Shown piece after piece: positions 9,708 to 55,351 of a stretch of 64,000 bases of DNA. Every line of letters starts with the position of its first letter. The stretch's first letter is position 1. The translations under genes and the position numbers were made by a program. The notes under the pieces are model-generated. The model did not search any database. It was given only the letters and a program-made list of their open reading frames with translations, and was not told the DNA's origin. This DNA comes from an uncultured delta proteobacterium (GTDB lineage: Bacteria; Desulfobacterota; Binatia; Binatales; Binataceae), in contig CAVVEB010000019.1 in assembly GCA_963747115.1 (NCBI GenBank), positions 76,704-140,703 on the forward strand, in the 5' to 3' direction.

Positions 9708-9993
9708 ATCGCTCGGGTGGCGCAACCTAACGAACAAGACCAATCAATTCAACCTGACGAGACGATGAGGCCGAACTCGGGCGGGTCAATTTGCAGTCCT
9801 CGCCAGCCAACCTCGAGGAGTGGGATTCGCTGGTGCAGGTGAACACAATTTTGAGCCTGGAACAGGAATGCGGAGTTCAATTCTCGGTCGAGGAGATCGA
9901 GGAGATGACCGACGTCGATAAAATCCTGCAAGTGCTCGTGCGTAAGAATCACAATCGCATCGGGAGCTAGATGCGCAAACGGCGCGCCCGCAT
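9708..9993 (+). pseudogene. decayed partial duplicate of the FkbH/ACP region (FkbH internal fragment fused to the ACP 3' part)
   Basis: Nt 9767-9993 align base-for-base with 997-1223 at offset 8770, with about 90+% identity by eye, including the TAG and the following ATG. Nt 9708-9760 resemble FkbH nt 469-522 (NQFNLT codons). The FkbH-frame piece hits TGA at 9766, and the ACP-frame piece has no start and a TGA at 9755. Confidence 0.7.
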
Positions 9994-44571: not shown

Positions 44572-44704
44572 CGTGACGGCGAGTTGTTTGCGTTACTCCT
44601 GGCAGGGACGGTTCCGGTAGCGTGACGGCCGGATGAGAGCGGGAGGGCGTCCTCGCCCGACGGTGATGGAGTGGCACCACCTATTCCTGCGCATCGCTCT
44701 TTTT

Positions 44705-44887
44705 GTCATCCAGAAGCAAGCGCAGCGCCGCTGAAGGATCTCGTGGCCTCACAAAACAAAGTCGCGCCGTTGATCCGCACCGTGAGCGACCCCCGGATGA
44801 TCACTCGCATTCGCATGCTGAAAGCAACACTCGCTACCGGCACTCACCCGAGATCCTTCGGCATCGCTCCGCTCACCTCTGGATGAC
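44705..44887. mobile_element. MITE-like 183-bp element with ~39-bp terminal inverted repeats (second copy 45870-46052)
   Basis: The left end GTCATCCAGAAGCAAGCGCAGCGCCGCTGAAGGATCTCG and the reverse complement of the right end GTCATCCAGAGGTGAGCGGAGCGATGCCGAAGGATCTCG agree at about 31 of 39 positions. Confidence 0.55.
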
Positions 44888-45033
44888 AAGGGAAAAGAAC
44901 GGCGTTCGCGGCGATTCGTGGCGTGCGATCACCGCGCGCAACGCGCGGCTCTCAGCTGGCCGGCGCGATGGTCGCTCTTGCGATTCGCGACAACCGTGCC
45001 AGTCGGATGAGAGCGGCGCGCGCTGCCTCGCGG

Positions 45034-45243
45034 CCGCTCTTCTTACAAGACGCCGCCTCTTCTAATGTCATCCTGAGGGTCGTCCCGAAGGACCTACGCG
45101 GAGCGACCGCGAGGCACGCCGAGCGGTCGCCCTTCTTACAAGACGCCGCCTCTTCTAATGTCATCCTGAGGGTCGTCCCGAAGGACCTACGCGGAGCGAC
45201 CGCGAGGCACGCCGAGCGGTCGCCCTGAGCGCAGCGAGGGGCC
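45034..45243. repeat. left inverted repeat of GIY-YIG module A (contains a 93-nt internal tandem duplication, 45039-45131 / 45132-45224)
   Basis: CCGCTCTTCTTACAAG...AATGTCATCCTGAGGGTCGTCCCGAAGGACCTACGCGGAGCGACCGCGAGGCACGCCGAGCGGTCGCC...GAGGGGCC. Its reverse complement recurs at 45577-45693. Confidence 0.85.
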
Positions 45244-45265
45244 CACGCGAAGCGATGGTCTGAGA

Positions 45266-45577
45266 ATGCGCAATAACTATTTCATCTATTTACTGACGAA
45301 TCGCACGCATACCCTTTACATCGGAGTTACGGACAATCTTGAGCAGCGGCTCGAGGAGCATCGCGCCGGATTTGCTTCGGTGTTCACCGCCAAGTACAAA
45401 ATTCATCGCCTGGTTTATTTCGAACAATTCGATGACATCGTTTACGCCATCGCGCGGGAGAAACAACTCAAAGGGTGGCTTCGGCGCAGGAAGATCGAGC
45501 TGATTGAGAGTATGAATCCGCGATGGACTGATTTGAGCCTTGAAATGTTTCCGAGCAAGGGGCATCGCTCCCCATAG
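45266..45577 (+). CDS. GIY-YIG nuclease-domain protein (UPF0213/YhbQ-like, 103 aa)
   Basis: YFIYLLTNRTHTLYIGVTDNLEQRLEEHR (GIY...YIG plus a conserved Arg/Glu helix) and EKQLKGWLRRRKIELIE (the typical REKQLKxW block). Confidence 0.85.
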   Translation: MRNNYFIYLLTNRTHTLYIGVTDNLEQRLEEHRAGFASVFTAKYKIHRLVYFEQFDDIVYAIAREKQLKGWLRRRKIELIESMNPRWTDLSLEMFPSKGHRSP

Positions 45578-45693
45578 GTCCTTCGCTTCGCTCAGGACGA
45601 CCGCTCGGCGTGCCTCGCGGTCGCTCCGCGTAGGTCCTTCGGGACGACCCTCAGGATGACATTGAGAGAGGCATGGCCTTGTAAGAAGAGCGG
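45577..45693. repeat. right inverted repeat of GIY-YIG module A
   Basis: The reverse complement equals the left repeat at about 90% identity over about 117 nt. It begins at the last base of the GIY-YIG stop codon. Confidence 0.85.
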
Positions 45694-46198
45694 CACACTC
45701 GCAGGCTTCGTGGCGCGCGATCACCGCGCGCAACGCGCGGCTCTCATCTGGCCGGCGCGATGGTCGCTCCTTGGCTTGCGACCAGCGTGACGGCCGGATG
45801 AGAGCGGGAGGGCGTCCTCGCCCGACGGTGATGGAGTGCCACCACCTATTCCTGCGCATCGCTCTTTTTGTCATCCAGAAGCAAGCGCAGCGCCGCTGAA
45901 GGATCTCGTGGCCCCACAAAACAAAGTCGCGCCGTTGATCCGCACCGTGAGCGACCCCCGGATGATCACTCGCATTCGCATGCTGAAAGCAACACTCGCT
46001 ACCGGCACTCACCCGAGATCCTTCGGCATCGCTCCGCTCACCTCTGGATGACAAGGGAAAAGAACGGCGTTCGCGGCGATTCGTGGCGTGCGATCACCGC
46101 GCGCAACGCGCGGCTCTCATCTGGCCGGCGCGATGGTCGCTCTTGCGGTTCGCGACAACCGTGCCAGTCGGATGAGAGCGGCGCGCGCTGCCTCGCGG

Positions 46199-46315
46199 CC
46201 GCTCTTCTTACAAGACGCCGCCTCTTCTAATGTCATCCTGAGGGTCGTCCCGAAGGACCTACGCGGAGCGACCGCGAGGCACGCCGAGCGGTCGCCCTGA
46301 GCGCAGCGAGGGGCC
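46199..46315. repeat. left inverted repeat of GIY-YIG module B (single 93-nt unit)
   Basis: Same sequence as 45034-45243 but without the internal 93-nt duplication. Confidence 0.85.
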
Positions 46316-46337
46316 CACGCGAAGCGATGGTCTGAGA

Positions 46338-46649
46338 ATGCGCAATAACTATTTCATCTATTTACTGACGAATCGCACGCATACCCTTTACATCGGAGTT
46401 ACGGACAATCTTGAGCAGCGGCTCGAGGAGCATCGCGCCGGATTTGCTTCGGTGTTCACCGCCAAGTACAAAATTCATCGCCTGGTTTATTTCGAACAAT
46501 TCGATGACATCGTTTACGCCATCGCGCGGGAGAAACAACTCAAAGGGTGGCTTCGGCGCAGGAAGATCGAGCTGATTGAGAGTATGAATCCGCGATGGAC
46601 TGATTTGAGCCTTGAAATGTTTCCGAGCAAGGGGCATCGCTCCCCATAG
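46338..46649 (+). CDS. GIY-YIG nuclease-domain protein (identical second copy)
   Basis: The listed translation is identical to 45266..45577. Confidence 0.85.
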   Translation: MRNNYFIYLLTNRTHTLYIGVTDNLEQRLEEHRAGFASVFTAKYKIHRLVYFEQFDDIVYAIAREKQLKGWLRRRKIELIESMNPRWTDLSLEMFPSKGHRSP

Positions 46650-46765
46650 GTCCTTCGCTTCGCTCAGGACGACCGCTCGGCGTGCCTCGCGGTCGCTCCG
46701 CGTAGGTCCTTCGGGACGACCCTCAGGATGACATTGAGAGAGGCATGGCCTTGTAAGAAGAGCGG
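46649..46765. repeat. right inverted repeat of GIY-YIG module B
   Basis: Same sequence as 45577-45693. Confidence 0.85.
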
Positions 46766-47271
46766 CACACTCGCAGGCTTCGTGGCGCGCGATCACCGCG
46801 CGCAATGCGCGGCTCATCCGTCCGGCACAGTTGTCGCGAATCATAAGAGCGACAACTGTGCCAGCCACCCTCCTATTTTCGCTTCGACTCCACTCGCGTT
46901 CCGCCTCAGCGGCTTCGCGTCTCGCTACTGCGAGAGAAGGGCTTTGGGAAGACCGCACCAACTTTCGGCGGGCGCGCGCTTCAGGATCGCCGAACAGTTT
47001 TCGGCGCTCAACCCGAGATTCCGTCGATGAAGAGCCCCAGCTTATTCTGGCGCCGCCTCACCCGCAGCGGTATCTCACGCGCTATCGATAAGTAGGGTGT
47101 GGCGCTGCGCCGCCGGCTTGCCGGAAGTAGTGTCTCCTCCAGGACTATCTGGCCGCAAAATGAAACTTCAGAATCACAGCTGGCGCCGCCCAGGTTGAGA
47201 AAACGACCTGCCTGCATCCTCTGTTGAGCAGCGCCGATGGTGATGCTAACGGATCATGCTCGGAGGTCCCC

Positions 47272-48400
47272 TTGAAACGATCGACCAAGCTTTTTCTGAT
47301 GGTAATGGTTCTCGCGTTGGCAGGATGCGCACAGCACCCTGCGTCATCTCCCAACCCGCCGGCTCAAACCGGCGCCGCTGCTGCCTGTGCGGATAAGCAC
47401 GGCGTGTTCGTCACTGGCCCAAAGATGATCACCCCGCGTGACCAACAGGCCGCGGCCTTGCTCGAAAATGGTCAGGTTCTGATCGCGGGTGGCTTGGGCG
47501 CGATGGACTCGAGTGAGATCTACGATCCCGCAAGCGACAGTTTTAAGGCGGGGCCACAAATGACCGCCAAGCGCATGAGAGCCGTGGCGACTCGTCTCCA
47601 GGATGGCCGAGTGCTGATCAGCGGCGGAATGGGTGACCATACGGGTGCTCTCGATAGTGCGGAGGTCTTCGATCCAAAAACGAACACCTTCACTGCTACG
47701 GGACCGATGAGCACGAAGCGCGTAGCTCATTCGGCGACGTTGCTCGAGGATGGAAAGGTGCTGGTCACGGTGGGGAGAACAGCCGATCTCTTCGATCCGG
47801 CGACCAATACTTTTGCTCCTGCTGGAAAGCCGTTGCTAAACGGACATGAGAGTTCAGGAACCCGGCTTCAGGACGGACGAGTGTTGCTTGTATGCGGCGG
47901 CCAGAACATTCTGGATTTCAAGGCGGCGCAAATTTACGATCCCAGGACCAACGAGTTCACGCACACTGGAGATATGGCGGTGCCGTACTTCATGTGCTCC
48001 AGCACGCTCCTTCCCAACGGCAAGGTATTGATTTCCGGTAACGGAGGCGACCAAAAGACGCAGGCGGCCAGCTTTACGATCCCGCAACCGGAAAATTCAG
48101 CCTTGCAGGCACCACGGCGGTTCCCGTGGTGGATCCGCTTCAGGACCCGCTGAAAGATGGCCGGGTACTAATGATGGGAATCATGTTGCCATTTGATCGT
48201 CATCACGATGACACCACCGCGGCCGCGATTTATGACTCCTCGTCTTCGACGTTCAGTAAGGCGGGCACTCTAAAGCCCATGCGACAAACTGGTATACGTT
48301 GACTACTCTTTCGGACGGCAGCGTTTTGATGGCGGGAGGTGGGGAGCGCATTCTGCGGAAAACAAAGTTCTCGGATAACGCGATGCTGTACTGTCCGTGA
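47272..48400 (+). pseudogene. Kelch/galactose-oxidase-like beta-propeller lipoprotein, interrupted by two frameshifts
   Basis: TTG 47272 lies 5 nt after GGAGG and gives MKRSTKLFLMVMVLALAGC (lipobox). There are repeated units ...DGRVLI(S/A)GG...AE(V/I)(F/Y)DP.T..F. The reading continues in the -1 frame after about 48056 (QLYDPATGKFSLAG...) and again after about 48288 (NWYTLTTLSDGSVLMAGG...MLYCP*). Confidence 0.65.
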
Positions 48401-52753: not shown

Positions 52754-55351
52754 ATGCGGCGAGCGAAATTTTCCACAATCTTTTCCTGGTTCATCGCTTC
52801 AGTCATGCTTCTTGCGCTCGGCGTCGCGGTCTCGGCGACCAAAGCGGCCGCGCAAGAGTTGTCAGTAACCAACGCGAATGACCAGGACGCCGCCGACCTC
52901 GCGGGAGATGCGCAGGCAGACGCGGAGTTTGCCAAAAGTCCGAGGGTCTCTCTCAATGTATTTCCGCATGCGCTGAATTTCGGCCTGGCTTCCGAACAGG
53001 AACTAATGGTCTTCATTATCAACGCGAAGAATGGTCCGGTTAACGTTAACGTCAACCCTACGATTCAGAATATCGGAAAGAGGGACCGGGGCTTCAGCGT
53101 ACAAAATTATATCGGGTTTCGGCGCACAAACGGTCACTCCAAACAGTCCCGGAATCGTATTTGTCCAATTTACGCCGCTAGCCAAGGGTAGTTACAAAGC
53201 GTTCATAGCGGTGACCAGCAACCTCAGCACAAAAGCCATCAAGGTCCGGCTGGCAGGTAGCGCAAAGGGCACGGTTGAAACTCCGAGGACACCGCGACCC
53301 CGACCGCAACCCCGACCGCGACGGCCACGGCAACTCGAACCGCGACCGCCACTCCCACATTAACCGCAACCGCAACCCTGACCGCCACCGCGACCGATTG
53401 CACTGCGACGCTTACCGCACCGCGACTGCCACTCCGACAGCAACCGCAACCCTGACTGCCACTCCGACCCAGACGGCAACCGCGACCTCGACTACCGGTG
53501 CGACTCCGACTGCGACCACGACCACCGGTGCGACTCCGACCGCAACCACGACCACCGGTGCGACTCCGACCGCAACCACGACCACCGGTGCGACCCCGAC
53601 TGCGACCACGACCACCGGAGCGACTCCGACCGCAACCACGACCACCGGAGCGACGCCTACTCCTACCGCGAGCTACCGGAATGGGGGCAACCCCGACTCC
53701 GACCGCGACGGTAACTGCGACGGCCACGGCAACTGCAACCCAAACCGCCACTGCGACGGTAACTGCAACCACGACCGCAACCGCGACCTCGACGGCGACT
53801 GCAACCACGACCGCGACGGCGACCTCCACCAGCAGTTCCTCGCCGACGGCCACTCCAACTTCGGCAGCTGGACCGCAGTCGGGCGACTTGCTGATCGCGG
53901 GTGGTGATCAGGGCGGGACCTTGGGCATATTCGTACCGCTGTCGGTTTCAGTGGTATCGGACAATGTCTCGCAAGTCTTCAACACTACGACTAATCAGTT
54001 CCAAGCGGTGGGCAATCTCGTGCATGACCGTGAAGCGACCAGCGCGATTCCGCTGCCCAACGGCAAGGTTCTGATCCCGGGCGGCTCTCATTGCGCCGCG
54101 ATGACCTATAGCAAGACCCAGTCCGCCGCCTGCGGGACCGCGACCTTCACCGGCTTCCAGTGCGACGCGCTCTCTACCGCTGAGTTGTACGACGAGACCA
54201 CCGGTATGTTTACCGCGGCAGGTTTGGGCGGCGGCGGCAGCGGCATGACTACCGCGCGCAGCGGCCCCTCGGGCACTGTGATTGAGGGTTCGGGCACGGC
54301 GCTGGATGGGCAGGTGCTGATCGCGGGCGGTTCGAGCGGCAGTACGTTTGTGGCCCTCTCAACTCCGCCCGCCGGATGCGGACCTTCGGGCCAGGCCGCG
54401 GTAAACACGGCCGAGATCTACAACCCGGCAACGGATACTTTCACCGCGCTACCCCATAACATTCCCCTACCCTCAACCTGCGGAAGCGGCGGCACTTCGC
54501 AATGCGGAATCTTGGACGACGGCGCGACGCTGCTCGGAAACGGAGAGGTTCTGATCGCGGGCGGCGACCTGATTGCCTTCCTCGACGTATCTACCAAGCA
54601 GGCCGTGCTGTTCAATCCGTCGACCGAGATGTTTACGGCCACGGGCTCAATGAGCGTGGCGCGCGAAATTCCGGCCACCAGCATCCTTCCCGATGGACGC
54701 GTGCTGGAGGCGGGCGGCTTACTTGCCGAGTCAGGGCCATGCCTCGGCACCGCCAATCCGGTCGCGGTGTCGGCGAACAACACAGCGGAAGTGTACAATC
54801 CGATGACAGGGACGTGGACGGCGACCAGCAACAATCTGTCCCAGAAGAAAGTGGGTATTGCCGCGCTGCCATTCGTCAGTGGACCATTGGCCGGCATGCA
54901 GATTATCGCCGGAGGCGTGGATCCCGAAACGCCAAGCTTCCCTGCCTGCAAGGCACTGACTTCGCTGACGCAGCTTACCGAGTCATCGGCCGATCTGTTC
55001 GACGAGACGGCAGCTGGTGGAACCGGGGCGTTTACTCCGACCGGACCATTGACCCTGCCGCGTGATGGCCAAGCCAGCATCCCGCTCGGTTCCGGCACCA
55101 ACGCAGGCAAAATAATAGTGGCCGGAGGCTCGTGCACGAATAACGAGACTCTGGGCTTGTCGGCGTGGGTAATCGGTACCTCCGGAGCCGGTACAGGATG
55201 TAAGACCACTGGCCTACCCGCCAACGCAGGTCTGAACGACTACGCCGAACTGTATGATCCGGCGACCGGGACCTGGACGGTGCTCACCGGCACCGGCTCC
55301 GGCCCGGCAGTGACGCCCACCAACGCTTCGGCTTTCAACGTCCTGCCGTAA
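52754..55351 (+). pseudogene. secreted N-module / Thr-Ala-Pro repeat / Kelch-like beta-propeller protein with about four frame changes
   Basis: ATG 52754 lies 10 nt after GGAGGG, with signal peptide MRRAKFSTIFSWFIASVMLLALGVAVSATKAAA. Paralog-matching text sits in frame 2 to about 53081, frame 0 to about 53286 (GTGASAYKI...VRLAGSAKGTVETP), frame 2 to about 53419 ([18 protein letters not shown]...), frame 1 to about 53668 ((GATPTATTTT)x5) and frame 2 to the end ([14 protein letters not shown]... then Kelch-like repeats). Confidence 0.6.
53285..53850 (+). repeat. (ACN-GCN)n-type coding low-complexity tract (Thr/Ala/Pro), including a 30-nt unit x5
   Basis: accaccggtgcgactccgaccgcaaccacg repeats about five times from about 53491 to 53650. 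The remainder is degenerate Thr-Ala codon alternation. Confidence 0.85.

Follow-up and report, generated by a model that had tools for sequence, protein, structure and literature searches.

A GIY-YIG nuclease gene flanked by inverted arrays of a DNA hairpin: a putative repeat element akin to REP/RAYT systems

A small GIY-YIG nuclease gene and the inverted copies of a short DNA hairpin on its two sides form a cassette that is conserved as a unit and widespread, with carriers in many phyla of bacteria. We describe it here from a 64,000-nucleotide stretch of DNA (the window), where the cassette occurs twice in tandem (Table 1), and from homologous loci. Its organization suggests a repeat element associated with a nuclease, comparable to REP/RAYT. 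Most likely, the element is selfish or semi-domesticated, is present at low copy number and encodes a structure-specific nuclease that would act on the element's own hairpins, the cutting and the spread being read from sequence patterns. For the data as a whole, we lean, with modest confidence, toward a widespread cassette whose hairpins are the substrate of the nuclease and which spreads in a homing-like manner by break repair. Thousands of bacterial genomes have annotations of small standalone GIY-YIG genes ('GIY-YIG nuclease family protein', COG2827/UPF0213), which are assumed to encode repair enzymes of unknown role. In the literature on GIY-YIG, COG2827, YhbQ and UPF0213 we found no report tying the family to repeats or mobility, and neither Rfam nor the literature yielded a description of a hairpin-flanked GIY-YIG element.

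Table 1. Features of the duplicated cassette region, in window coordinates.
Feature	Position	Strand	Remarks
Tandem duplication unit A	44619-45783	+	1165 nt; global alignment against unit B and direct repeats
Tandem duplication unit B	45784 to ~46812	+	similarity to unit A stops at ~46812
GIY-YIG (Slx1/UPF0213-like) nuclease gene, copy A	45266-45577	+	103 aa; ORF list, Pfam match
GIY-YIG nuclease gene, copy B	46338-46649	+	103 aa, identical to copy A
Left arm, copy A	45128-45257	+	outer 34 nt, unit 45160-45186, 8-bp middle hairpin, unit 45219-45242
Right arm, copy A	45563-45694	-	unit 45578-45601 (GTCGTCCTGAGCGAAGCGAAGGAC), second unit 45634-45660
Left arm, copy B	46198-46329	+	units 46232-46258 and 46291-46314
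Right arm, copy B	46635-46766	-	units 46650-46673 and 46706-46732
Extra 93-nt tandem copy, outer left arm	45025-45117	+	direct repeat, 96-100%; holds unit 45067-45093
Gene-less hairpin-unit doublet in unit A	44703-44889	.	41-nt terminal inverted repeats, 105-nt center; MITE/REPIN-like
Gene-less hairpin-unit doublet in unit B	45868-46054	.	inverted repeat
Unrelated REP-like 66-nt palindrome (family E1)	45740-45805	.	inverted repeats; duplication junction lies within the loop
Other E1 palindrome copies	44951-45016, 46116-46181, 46813-46867 (divergent)	.	inverted repeats

A preliminary description of this DNA had reported an identical 103-amino-acid ORF in each module and inverted repeats of about 90% identity around it, and both observations hold. 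The arms of copy A (45128-45257 and 45563-45692) are 130 nt long, 88% complementary and separated by 305 nt, and those of copy B (46198-46329 and 46635-46766) are 132 nt long and 89% complementary; the outermost 101 nt of copy A (45033-45133 and 45594-45694) reach 92%. The left arm of copy A had been placed at 45034-45243, which merges a duplicated 93-nt piece with the arm proper. The right repeat had been said to start at the stop codon, which is slightly off. In copy A, the right arm begins at 45563, 12 nt upstream of the TAG (45575-45577), and overlaps the last 15 nt of the ORF, so that the final 4-5 codons are encoded by the repeat, and the hairpin unit within that arm (45578-45601) starts 1 nt past the stop codon. 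On the other side of the gene, the left unit (45219-45242) ends 23 nt 5' of the ATG. A 29-mer from the arm core occurs five times in the window and is absent from 100 shuffles, which excludes a chance origin of the inverted repeats. Rather than plain terminal repeats, the arms are arrays of a hairpin unit. Among the ORFs between them, only GIY-YIG matches a protein family (ORF list, Pfam), and no ORF with a match encodes a transposase of the known classes (DDE, DEDD, HUH, serine or tyrosine). Target-site duplications, which we looked for at 45033/45694 and at the doublet ends, are not visible, and we found no defined insertion site.

The small repeats nearby are built from the same module, as had been proposed: the 41-nt terminal repeats of the 187-nt doublets (44703-44889 and 45868-46054) share the GTCATCC...GAAGGATC pattern with the arms. 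The first doublet has a DNA fold z-score of -4.6, and a profile search of six-frame translations found no GIY-YIG remnant in the doublet center. The E1 REP-like palindromes have DNA fold z-scores of -6.7 and -4.5. The region combines at least three repeat families in a mosaic, and we found no hairpin units elsewhere in the 64-kb window. In a global alignment, units A and B differ by 5 substitutions over ~1030 aligned nt (~99.5% identity outside a 93-nt indel) and meet at 45783/45784, inside the loop of a REP-like palindrome; the preliminary description had recognized this junction and the low divergence. It had also read the duplication as recent activity, which stands for a recent local rearrangement and falls for transposition. 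Because an unrelated palindrome family and the gene-less doublet were copied along and the junction lies in a palindrome loop, the 1.17-kb tandem duplication is a recent segmental duplication of the entire repeat cluster and not a transposition event. The 93-nt arm stutter (45025-45117 and 45118-45210) is confined to unit A and faces a gap in unit B. An exact look-up of the 103-amino-acid protein returned no identical record, and soil runs X1-X3 gave only low-depth fragments (8-12% of words).

The hairpin unit has the consensus 5'-(Y-rich)T-GTC-[5-bp stem]-GA-[GCGNAGC-type apex or longer inner stem]-GA-[stem']-C-3'. Its GTC tag is invariant, with T at -1 in 76 and C at +1 in 95 of 99 units, and 82 of 112 24-nt units carry the apex GCGNAGC or ACGNAGT, bordered by 5'-YGAR-3' tandem G.A motifs. 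We assessed covariation in 92 loop-anchored units with unconstrained stems against 500 shuffles. The stems pair in 96.7% of cells versus 85.7% in shuffles, and double-sided changes occupy 103 cells versus 28.7 expected (0/500 shuffles in both cases). Six of the seven stem pairs show compensatory change, and slid controls gave 13-53%. Judged by this covariation, the stem is under selection for pairing. The d(GCGNAGC) sequence is an extraordinarily stable DNA mini-hairpin with a Tm of 70-76 C, and its DNA form is stabler than the RNA form (PMC13037366). Predicted folding of whole arms was no better than that of shuffles (z of -0.5 to -0.9), which we consider uninformative because the stability of G.A pairs and of the mini-hairpin is absent from the energy model. 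The wobble counts in the units, 3 G.T versus 12 A.C, are too weak to call the folding strand or DNA versus RNA. At gathering score, Rfam matched the units neither in the window nor at any of 20 loci; in the window region, its E-value mode returned only microRNA-model noise on unrelated palindromes at E<=5, and locus L073 had no match at E<=1. A hammerhead-like reading of CUGA...GAA was rejected upon inspection, since the core spacing misfits.

The same unit accompanies homologues of the window gene far beyond this contig. With a relaxed pattern, units lie on both sides of the gene in 63 of 76 homologous loci from many phyla and are inverted with outward GTC ends in 58 of 76; displaced control windows gave 5/60 and 9/60, respectively. 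A strict pattern gave 310 matches, distributed over 70 of 80 homologous loci, against 5 in shuffles. Roughly 85% of the matches at the loci lie within 500 nt of the gene, and unit density beside the gene is ~50-fold above that 1-3 kb away. Units in '+' orientation prevail upstream (67 versus 37) and those in '-' orientation downstream (74 versus 38); both orientations are present on either side. About 40 of 79 loci have a flank-to-flank inverted-repeat score of at least 17; the highest control score is 13. Carriers include Chloroflexota, Acidobacteriota, Cyanobacteriota, Actinomycetota, Pseudomonadota and other phyla, and the nuclease gene sits in unrelated genomic contexts in different taxa. 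Since units flank homologues at so many loci, gene and inverted repeats are one unit and no local accident. The case that had been named against a mobile element, ordinary REP elements randomly adjacent to the gene, is contradicted by the two-sided loci in many phyla. We give next to no probability to such a coincidence, in which REP-type repeats piled up in repeat-rich intergenic DNA around an unrelated small nuclease gene. The local mosaic, all of it co-copied by the tandem duplication, would suit it; the recurrence of one unit beside homologues in many phyla, its enrichment there and its spacing of 23 nt from the ATG on one side and 1 nt from the stop codon on the other do not.

The placement of the units raises a different question, namely whether they are cis-regulatory or insulating structures that act on the gene's own expression, with mobility uninvolved. 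Such structures might be, for example, RNA stem-loops pairing the 5' and 3' UTRs, terminators or stabilizers, or a nuclease inhibitor like those of type III toxin-antitoxin systems. Because the downstream unit abuts or overlaps the stop codon, it must be part of the mRNA. At loci L073 and L022, direct arrays of many units adjoin the gene and recall ToxI repeats, and the window locus has no recognizable sigma-70 promoter between arm and start codon. However, gene-less solo units, doublets and whole arms also exist at a great distance from GIY-YIG genes, either side of the gene can carry units of either orientation, and the apex motif is known for exceptional stability as DNA and less as RNA. 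In Ca. Aquicultor, ~170 nt of AT-rich DNA between the upstream unit and the start codon would leave room for a promoter, no Rfam family matches, and PADLOC defense models gave noise-level matches only. Taken together, we consider a purely cis-acting role quite improbable.

The protein between the arms belongs, by sequence and modeled fold, to the Slx1/UPF0213 lineage of the GIY-YIG superfamily. It matches Pfam GIY-YIG (PF01541) at E=3.7e-13 (50 bits, cutoff 22.6), and its profile hits 1zg2 (E=1e-8) and 1ywl (E=3.6e-6) in the PDB. The AF2 model (pLDDT 89.8) has as top Foldseek matches the UPF0213 structure 1zg2 and the Slx1-Slx4 structures 7cq3, 6seh, 6sei and 4xlg, at an rmsd of 2.5-3.4 A. The catalytic-type residues Y8, Y18, R28, H32, E65 and N84 are invariant in 28 homologues. 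The 103 amino acids comprise the domain only and lack a C-terminal DNA-binding region (NUMOD, zinc finger or helix-turn-helix); NCBIfam returned only a sub-threshold intron-endonuclease match (TIGR01453, 17.8 bits versus a cutoff of 56). Slx1 cleaves branched and stem-loop DNA. It is a structure-specific endonuclease (PMC1564403, PMC7017083), and the Slx1/UPF0213 family has been judged mostly vertically inherited and repair-related (PMC1564403). For one Caulobacter COG2827 paralogue, a homologue of the window protein, an SOS box was reported (PMC1839093).

Comparison of related genomes reveals that the cassette is gained, locally duplicated and decays via internal deletion to gene-less doublets and solo hairpins, and that it is missing at orthologous sites of relatives. 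The 857-nt gltA-lpxB spacer of S. meliloti reads [H+ deleted-gene H- spacer H+ gene H- spacer H+], a full cassette copy and a deletion derivative in one strain. The preliminary description had suggested a search for empty sites in related strains, and candidates occur at this spacer: Sinorhizobium sp. K101/C101/M103, with 96% identical flanks, have ~160 gene-less nt holding one symmetric hairpin and a short remnant, and Shinella has no units and an ordinary terminator only. The 'empty' K101 state could be a deletion footprint and not a never-occupied target. Cassette copies or remnants occupy several Sinorhizobium sites, among them a decayed internal-deletion copy on pSMED01 of S. medicae and a solo hairpin on pSymB. 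The window's exact 29-mer recurs on six soil-metagenome contigs in gene-less solo units or an entire gene-less arm, the solo units being intergenic and just 3' of stop codons, and Terracidiphilus has a second copy, 95% identical, 1.2 kb away. The outer edges of the hairpins carry rapidly varying half-hairpin stutter arrays. Strains of Ca. Aquicultor differ almost solely in the number (3-5) of a 21-nt half-hairpin unit, and similar arrays are found at 13 of 80 loci and in Planktothrix. The 93-nt arm stutter of window unit A fits this pattern. Presence/absence polymorphism, internal-deletion derivatives and solo hairpins fit a minimal selfish element with the nuclease as its sole cargo. To this extent the earlier proposal of a minimal mobile element survives, gene and repeats being one unit; its ends, being hairpin arrays, are not simple transposon ends.

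The copy number of these sequences is low. Each Sinorhizobium replicon carries 1-7 hairpins, and a second gene copy lies within 3 kb at 2 of 80 loci. The locus of Ca. Aquicultor is fixed in one genomic context across many samples, and this stability within the species indicates that the elements are not highly mobile. Relatives turned up in 35 of 72,556 plasmid records, at 14 loci among 2.9 million viral contigs, and in none of 50,697 phage records. Low copy number, the fixed Ca. Aquicultor locus, the vertical, repair-related view of the family and the SOS box also fit a domesticated host gene. The cassette would then not be selfish; it would belong to a REP/RAYT-like system in which a single-copy, vertically inherited housekeeping nuclease maintains or disperses hairpins that the host keeps for some function of its own, such as protecting mRNA 3' ends, termination or organizing the nucleoid. 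This reading is supported by the inverted hairpins around the gene, which match the REPs around RAYT genes exactly in arrangement, and it agrees with the within-species stability, the rarity on plasmids and viral contigs and absence from phage records, the position of solo units in intergenic DNA directly 3' of stop codons, and the mainly vertical inheritance attributed to the family. It is at odds with hairpin numbers that are small against the tens to hundreds per genome of REPINs, with the confinement of most units to within 500 nt of the gene, and with unrelated gene contexts among taxa and presence/absence at an orthologous site. Decayed gene copies would likewise be unexpected if the host gene were useful. 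On balance, we regard full domestication as rather unlikely.

In the homing-like spread that we favor, the hairpins would extrude as very stable single-strand or cruciform DNA, held by sheared G.A pairs and the d(GCGNAGC) apex, and the structure-specific nuclease of the cassette would act specifically on them. Recombination or template switching against another copy would repair the resulting nicks or breaks. By such repair, further sites with hairpins may gain a copy of the cassette or of its hairpins, and the local duplications, stutter arrays and deletion derivatives may also arise. We infer the functional link between nuclease and hairpin from their association. We know of no DNA joining or strand-transfer chemistry in GIY-YIG enzymes, so any spread must borrow host recombination. 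The phrase 'rather than a transposase', applied to the nuclease in the preliminary description, cannot be taken as saying that the enzyme does the work of a transposase. A better fit is break-induced, homing-like copying or a relationship like that of REP and RAYT.

Functionally, the cassette resembles a REP/REPIN-RAYT system or a hairpin-targeting homing element in which a GIY-YIG enzyme replaces the HUH transposase. With REP/REPIN-RAYT it shares a small nuclease gene that has a short DNA hairpin, tagged and covarying, in inverted copies on its flanks, the solo hairpins and spaced inverted doublets (compare the doublet at 44703-44889), and a locus that is stable within species. By contrast, the enzyme here is Slx1-like and theirs an HUH/Y1 transposase (TnpA-REP), the tag is GTC and theirs GTAG or CGTC, and low copy number and the G.A/GNA mini-hairpin design set the cassette apart. 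IS200/IS605 elements are likewise minimal, with DNA hairpin ends that are recognized by structure, small cargo and no target duplication, none being visible at the cassette; however, their hairpin ends are one-stranded, their enzyme is an HUH TnpA and they are usually multi-copy, whereas the cassette has inverted repeats. Terminal inverted repeats (130-132 nt in the window; inverted units in 58/76 loci) are shared with insertion sequences. Free-standing GIY-YIG homing genes (Seg, I-TevI-type) similarly have the nuclease as sole cargo, a presumed spread by break repair and a cycle of gain, decay and loss. Yet their products are of the UvrC+/HEase lineage and have a long DNA-binding region at the C terminus, and the genes reside in phages, introns or organelles, whereas here a bare 103-amino-acid Slx1-lineage domain lies in bacterial intergenic DNA between hairpin arrays, with 0/50,697 phage records. 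Slx1 and UPF0213 proteins (YhbQ, YazA, BH0048, EF2693) are of the same family by profile and predicted fold; in the literature that family figures as a vertically inherited repair function. Like bacterial MITEs, gene-less derivatives keep both inverted ends (the S. meliloti deletion copy, the pSMED01 remnant and the window doublet); unlike MITEs, they have no DDE-type parent insertion sequence and no visible target-site duplication, and their ends are self-folding hairpins.

A wider proposal seems to us possible, though doubtful: that bare Slx1-type GIY-YIG cassettes with ultra-stable mini-hairpin array ends are an unrecognized class of prokaryotic selfish DNA, in which the nuclease cuts its own hairpins and host recombination copies them, and that the bacterial 'Slx1-like repair' family, with ~13,000 clusters at 50% identity, consists largely of hairpin-homing elements and of lineages domesticated from them. 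If the nuclease acts on the hairpins, REP-like repeats would have a second source, one that does not depend on HUH/RAYT enzymes. Selfish behavior would then reach the Slx1 lineage, considered the superfamily's non-selfish branch, and there would be an explanation for recurrent breaks in assemblies and for spurious C-terminal tails of gene calls in metagenomes. The packaging of a large branch of COG2827/UPF0213 genes with a covarying DNA hairpin offers the family a concrete candidate substrate. The unit also shows the d(GCGNAGC) mini-hairpin, together with tandem G.A pairs, in natural use and might serve as a defined substrate for structure-specific nucleases.

Just as the preliminary description had it, the two GIY-YIG genes of the window lie in a tandem duplication; its copies, units A and B, differ by 5 substitutions in ~1030 nt of global alignment. 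The identical proteins of the two genes match the Pfam GIY-YIG domain (E=3.7e-13). Inverted-repeat arms do flank each gene. They extend over 130–132 nt rather than the ~117 bp first proposed, and the right arm sets in 12 nt upstream of the TAG stop rather than at it, so that the final codons of the nuclease gene are repeat-encoded. The small repeats nearby follow the arm pattern, as had been noticed, and form gene-less inverted pairs of hairpin units (doublets). Five copies of a 29-nt core (GTCATCCTGAGGGTCGTCCCGAAGGACCT) are present in the window, all within the arms, and 100 shuffles gave none; an additional 93-nt tandem copy of the outer left arm is confined to unit A. The duplication junction falls inside the loop of a 66-nt REP-like palindrome and several repeat families are included, indicating that a whole repeat cluster was copied. 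The duplication, previously taken as a sign of the element's recent activity, should thus be read as segmental and does not count as evidence for transposition. Sequencing reads cover the source organism, a rare soil bacterium, only in fragments.

Coordinates of the nuclease genes, their arms and the surrounding repeats in the window
Feature	Position	Strand	Remarks
GIY-YIG ORF, copy A	45266-45577	+	312 nt, 103 aa
GIY-YIG ORF, copy B	46338-46649	+	312 nt, 103 aa, identical to copy A
Inverted-repeat arms of copy A	45128-45257 / 45563-45692		130 nt, 88% complementary
Inverted-repeat arms of copy B	46198-46329 / 46635-46766		132 nt, 89% complementary
Tandem duplication, unit A	44619-45783		global alignment
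Tandem duplication, unit B	45784 to ~46812		global alignment
Gene-less doublet, unit A	44703-44889		187 nt, 41-nt inverted ends, hairpin-arm pattern, upstream
Gene-less doublet, unit B	45868-46054		187 nt, 41-nt inverted ends, hairpin-arm pattern, upstream
Hairpin unit, example	45578-45601	-	GTCGTCCTGAGCGAAGCGAAGGAC
Hairpin unit, example	45219-45242	+	ends 23 nt before ATG

The 66-nt REP-like palindromes (GCTCTCATCTGGCCGGCGCGATGGTCGC...GCGACC..GGATGAGAGC; 44951-45016, 45740-45805, 46116-46181, 46813-46867) are a second family, unrelated to the GTC-tagged hairpins. They have strong predicted DNA folding (z -4.5 and -6.7), with a 63-nt direct repeat ahead of each (44915, 45707, 46080, 46779), and the family also turns up in L099 and L101, two contigs from soil metagenomes. 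In soil contigs L099, L100 and L103, small palindromes of a third family, CCTCTCC-N5-6-GGAGAGG, are grouped with solo GTC-hairpin units, which points to BIME-like multi-family mosaics in relatives of the window organism.

The hairpin from which the arms are built is a structure under selection to pair. Each arm is an array of units in which GTC is followed by a stem of 5 nt, GA, either an apex or an inner stem, a second GA and the 5 nt complementary to the stem, and the GTC ends face outward from the gene on both flanks. When units were picked by loop sequence alone, leaving the stems unconstrained (99 units, 41 loci), all five stem pairs were Watson-Crick in 82, compared with 25% after random re-pairing. 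Across the 92 distinct unit sequences, 96.7% of cells are paired against 85.7% in shuffles (0/500), double-sided changes occupy 103 cells where 28.7 would be expected (0/500), compensatory change is seen in six of the seven pairs, and sliding the partner columns leaves pairing at only 13-53%. The middle stem pair occurs as C-G (44), T-A (41) or G-C (4); the outer apex pair is G-C (60) or A-T (31) and never unpaired. Whereas the invariance of the GTC tag follows by construction of the search, T at -1 (76/99 units) and C at +1 (95/99) are conserved beyond the stem. In the common 24-nt class, where two 5'-YGAR-3' steps flank the apex, 82 of 112 units have an apex that reads GCGNAGC or ACGNAGT; in longer variants either the GA/GA step is repeated or an inner stem with perfect pairing is added. 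Tandem G.A steps in YGAR context form sheared pairs. Judged by the nature of the motif alone, the selected hairpin probably acts as DNA: the d(GCGNAGC) "mini-hairpin" has a Tm of 70-76 °C, and its DNA form is more stable than its RNA form (PMC13037366). No Rfam family matched the hairpin units of the window, of 20 loci or of a Nitrospina locus (L073).

The pairing of gene and hairpins is not a local accident. The window protein has >5,600 relatives by word index, and 13,302 clusters (50% identity) at E<=1e-3 or 3,993 at E<=1e-10, all small, standalone and spread over many phyla, the nearest being only 69% identical. Among 80 homologous loci from different species, the strict hairpin pattern matched 310 times in 70 loci, compared with 5 matches in shuffled sequence, with ~85% of matches <=500 nt from the gene; on the upstream side '+' outnumbers '-' (67 v 37), and downstream '-' outnumbers '+' (74 v 38). 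With a relaxed pattern, units stand on both flanks in 63 of 76 loci and are inverted with GTC outward in 58 of 76, as against 5/60 and 9/60 in windows displaced by 1.5 kb, which contradicts the prospect, raised in the preliminary description, that such genes might lack any genome-wide link with the repeats. Direct flank-versus-flank alignment yields significant inverted repeats in about half of the loci, and the variable C-terminal tails of the homologues (…DPSLRSG, …LRSE, …AQDDK) are the downstream unit translated. Adjacency by coincidence, to which we give next to no credence, is excluded by this cross-phylum association; the nuclease gene with inverted hairpin arrays on both sides is a conserved cassette. 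Some loci hold very large arrays beyond a simple inverted pair, namely Bifidobacterium pluvialisilvae (L062), Nitrospina, with as many as 10 upstream and 6 downstream units, all in a single orientation, and a Ruminococcaceae locus (L022), where hairpins of two types follow each other in strict alternation at a period of ~118 nt.

The window protein is a member of the Slx1/UPF0213 family. A profile of 28 homologues matches both solved UPF0213 proteins, 1zg2 (E=1e-8) and 1ywl, and the AlphaFold model (pLDDT 89.8) lies nearest to 1zg2 and to Slx1 of Slx1-Slx4 crystals (rmsd 2.5-3.4 Å, ~75 residues). The invariance of Y8, Y18, R28, H32, E65 and N84 among the 28 homologues makes an active enzyme probable. 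Slx1 itself cuts DNA as a structure-specific endonuclease, and YhbQ and YazA belong to its family (PMC7017083). Dunin-Horkawicz et al. 2006 assigned 1zg2 and 1ywl to the Slx1 lineage, described as vertically inherited and repair-related, and saw the origin of selfish GIY-YIG enzymes in the second lineage, UvrC+ (PMC1564403). Of the three COG2827 genes in Caulobacter, which have no assigned role, one reportedly has an SOS box (PMC1839093). Free-standing homing endonuclease genes partly resemble the cassette in architecture, but the window protein lacks their DNA-binding extension and scores below threshold with the intron-endonuclease model. Nor does the cassette share their residence in phages and introns; the family is essentially absent from phages (no match in 50,697 phage records, 14 loci in 2.9 million viral contigs) and rare on plasmids (35 of 72,556 records).

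Cassettes undergo local duplication and internal deletion, and they leave solo remnants; some orthologous sites are empty. In the 857-nt gltA-lpxB spacer of S. meliloti, a hairpin(+), a 3' gene fragment, a hairpin(-) and a 122-nt spacer are followed by a hairpin(+), the full gene, a hairpin(-), spacer and a hairpin(+). In Sinorhizobium sp. K101, C101 and M103, whose flanking genes are 96% identical, the spacer is gene-less, ~160 nt long, and contains one symmetric hairpin (CTCATCCTCGGGCTTGTTCCCGAGGATGAC), a 37-nt spacer piece and a degenerate unit. The two flanking hairpins, each self-complementary, thereby double as a pair of direct repeats, and the symmetric hairpin would be the expected product of recombination between them; it could alternatively be an unoccupied target. 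The gltA-lpxB spacer of Shinella, ~37 nt long, holds nothing but an ordinary terminator. On S. medicae pSMED01 a decayed copy retains a hairpin together with the opening and closing codons of the gene; pSymB of strain 1021 has a solo hairpin, and Sinorhizobium replicons contain 1-7 hairpin copies each. The window's exact 29-mer recurs in six soil-metagenome contigs, none encoding the nuclease: five have solo units directly 3' of stop codons, preceded by a T-rich tract, and one an entire gene-less arm. Purely cis-regulatory hairpins, an improbable reading, are hard to square with such gene-less units. Terracidiphilus has a pair of copies, 95% identical and 1.2 kb from each other, accompanied by solo units and by a spacer that is itself repeated; a second gene copy within 3 kb is found in only 2 of 80 loci.

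The edges of the hairpins are hypervariable. In ten samples of Ca. Aquicultor secundus the gene context is constant and the sequences nearly identical, the main difference being the count (3-5) of "half-hairpin plus filler" units, each 21 nt long, on the outer margin of the downstream hairpin, accompanied by variation in the matching array upstream, an indel of a separate ~60-nt repeat beyond it and a few point differences. In half-unit arrays, known from 13 of the 80 loci plus a plasmid of Planktothrix, it is always the GTC-stem-GA half that stands ahead of a complete unit, and the 93-nt arm stutter in unit A is an event of this kind. The Planktothrix agardhii cassette, with full- and half-hairpin arrays (L081; plasmid p1, NZ_LR882964.1, 18.5-19.4 kb), sits inside a defence locus, with a type IIL MmeI restriction-modification gene on one side and DISARM drmA on the other. 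The Ca. Aquicultor loci (L083-L092) also carry a separate ~60-nt repeat (TAGACTTTGGCGTGTGCG...), in one or two copies by strain, ~600-660 nt upstream of the gene.

We lean, by a little, towards a mechanism in which the nuclease would cut its own extruded hairpins and repair from other copies would spread the cassette. Hairpins extruded from the DNA would be the substrate of the encoded structure-specific nuclease, with the invariant GTC and flanking C as a sequence tag at the single/double-strand junction. Breaks there would be repaired from another copy, a process that would carry cassette or hairpins to other hairpin-bearing sites and from which stutter arrays, tandem copies and deletion derivatives would also arise. 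The main rival, a domesticated REPIN-RAYT-like relation in which a stable host gene tends its repeats, would account for stability within a species, but low copy number, patchy genomic context and decayed gene copies make it unlikely.

In architecture the cassette works like REP/REPIN-RAYT systems, whose HUH enzyme it lacks, and partly like IS200/IS605, though without a known transposase class. We rate it as a nuclease-associated hairpin repeat element whose nuclease belongs to another superfamily; that it represents a distinct class of mobile DNA is a tentative suggestion, about which we are more doubtful than confident. A full-text search of the literature outside subscription journals returned no report tying the Slx1/UPF0213-type GIY-YIG family to repeats or mobility.

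Other repeats and genes mark the wider window. Kelch-repeat proteins flank the cassette region at 47224-48153, with a lipoprotein-like N-terminus, and at ~54000-54600. Long ACC/GCG/CCG-rich coding tandem repeats with 12/18/30-nt periods (53300-53870, 59100-60300, 63100-63800) are held by very large ORFs on the - strand (57844-61311 and 61760-63925), likely repetitive surface proteins, and the segments 57838-58927 and 61754-62843 are paralogous (80-88% identity). A 227-nt direct repeat (93% identity) has copies 8.8 kb apart (997-1223, 9767-9993), and polysaccharide-type genes encode a carbamoyltransferase, a methyltransferase and a chain-length-regulator-like P-loop protein.
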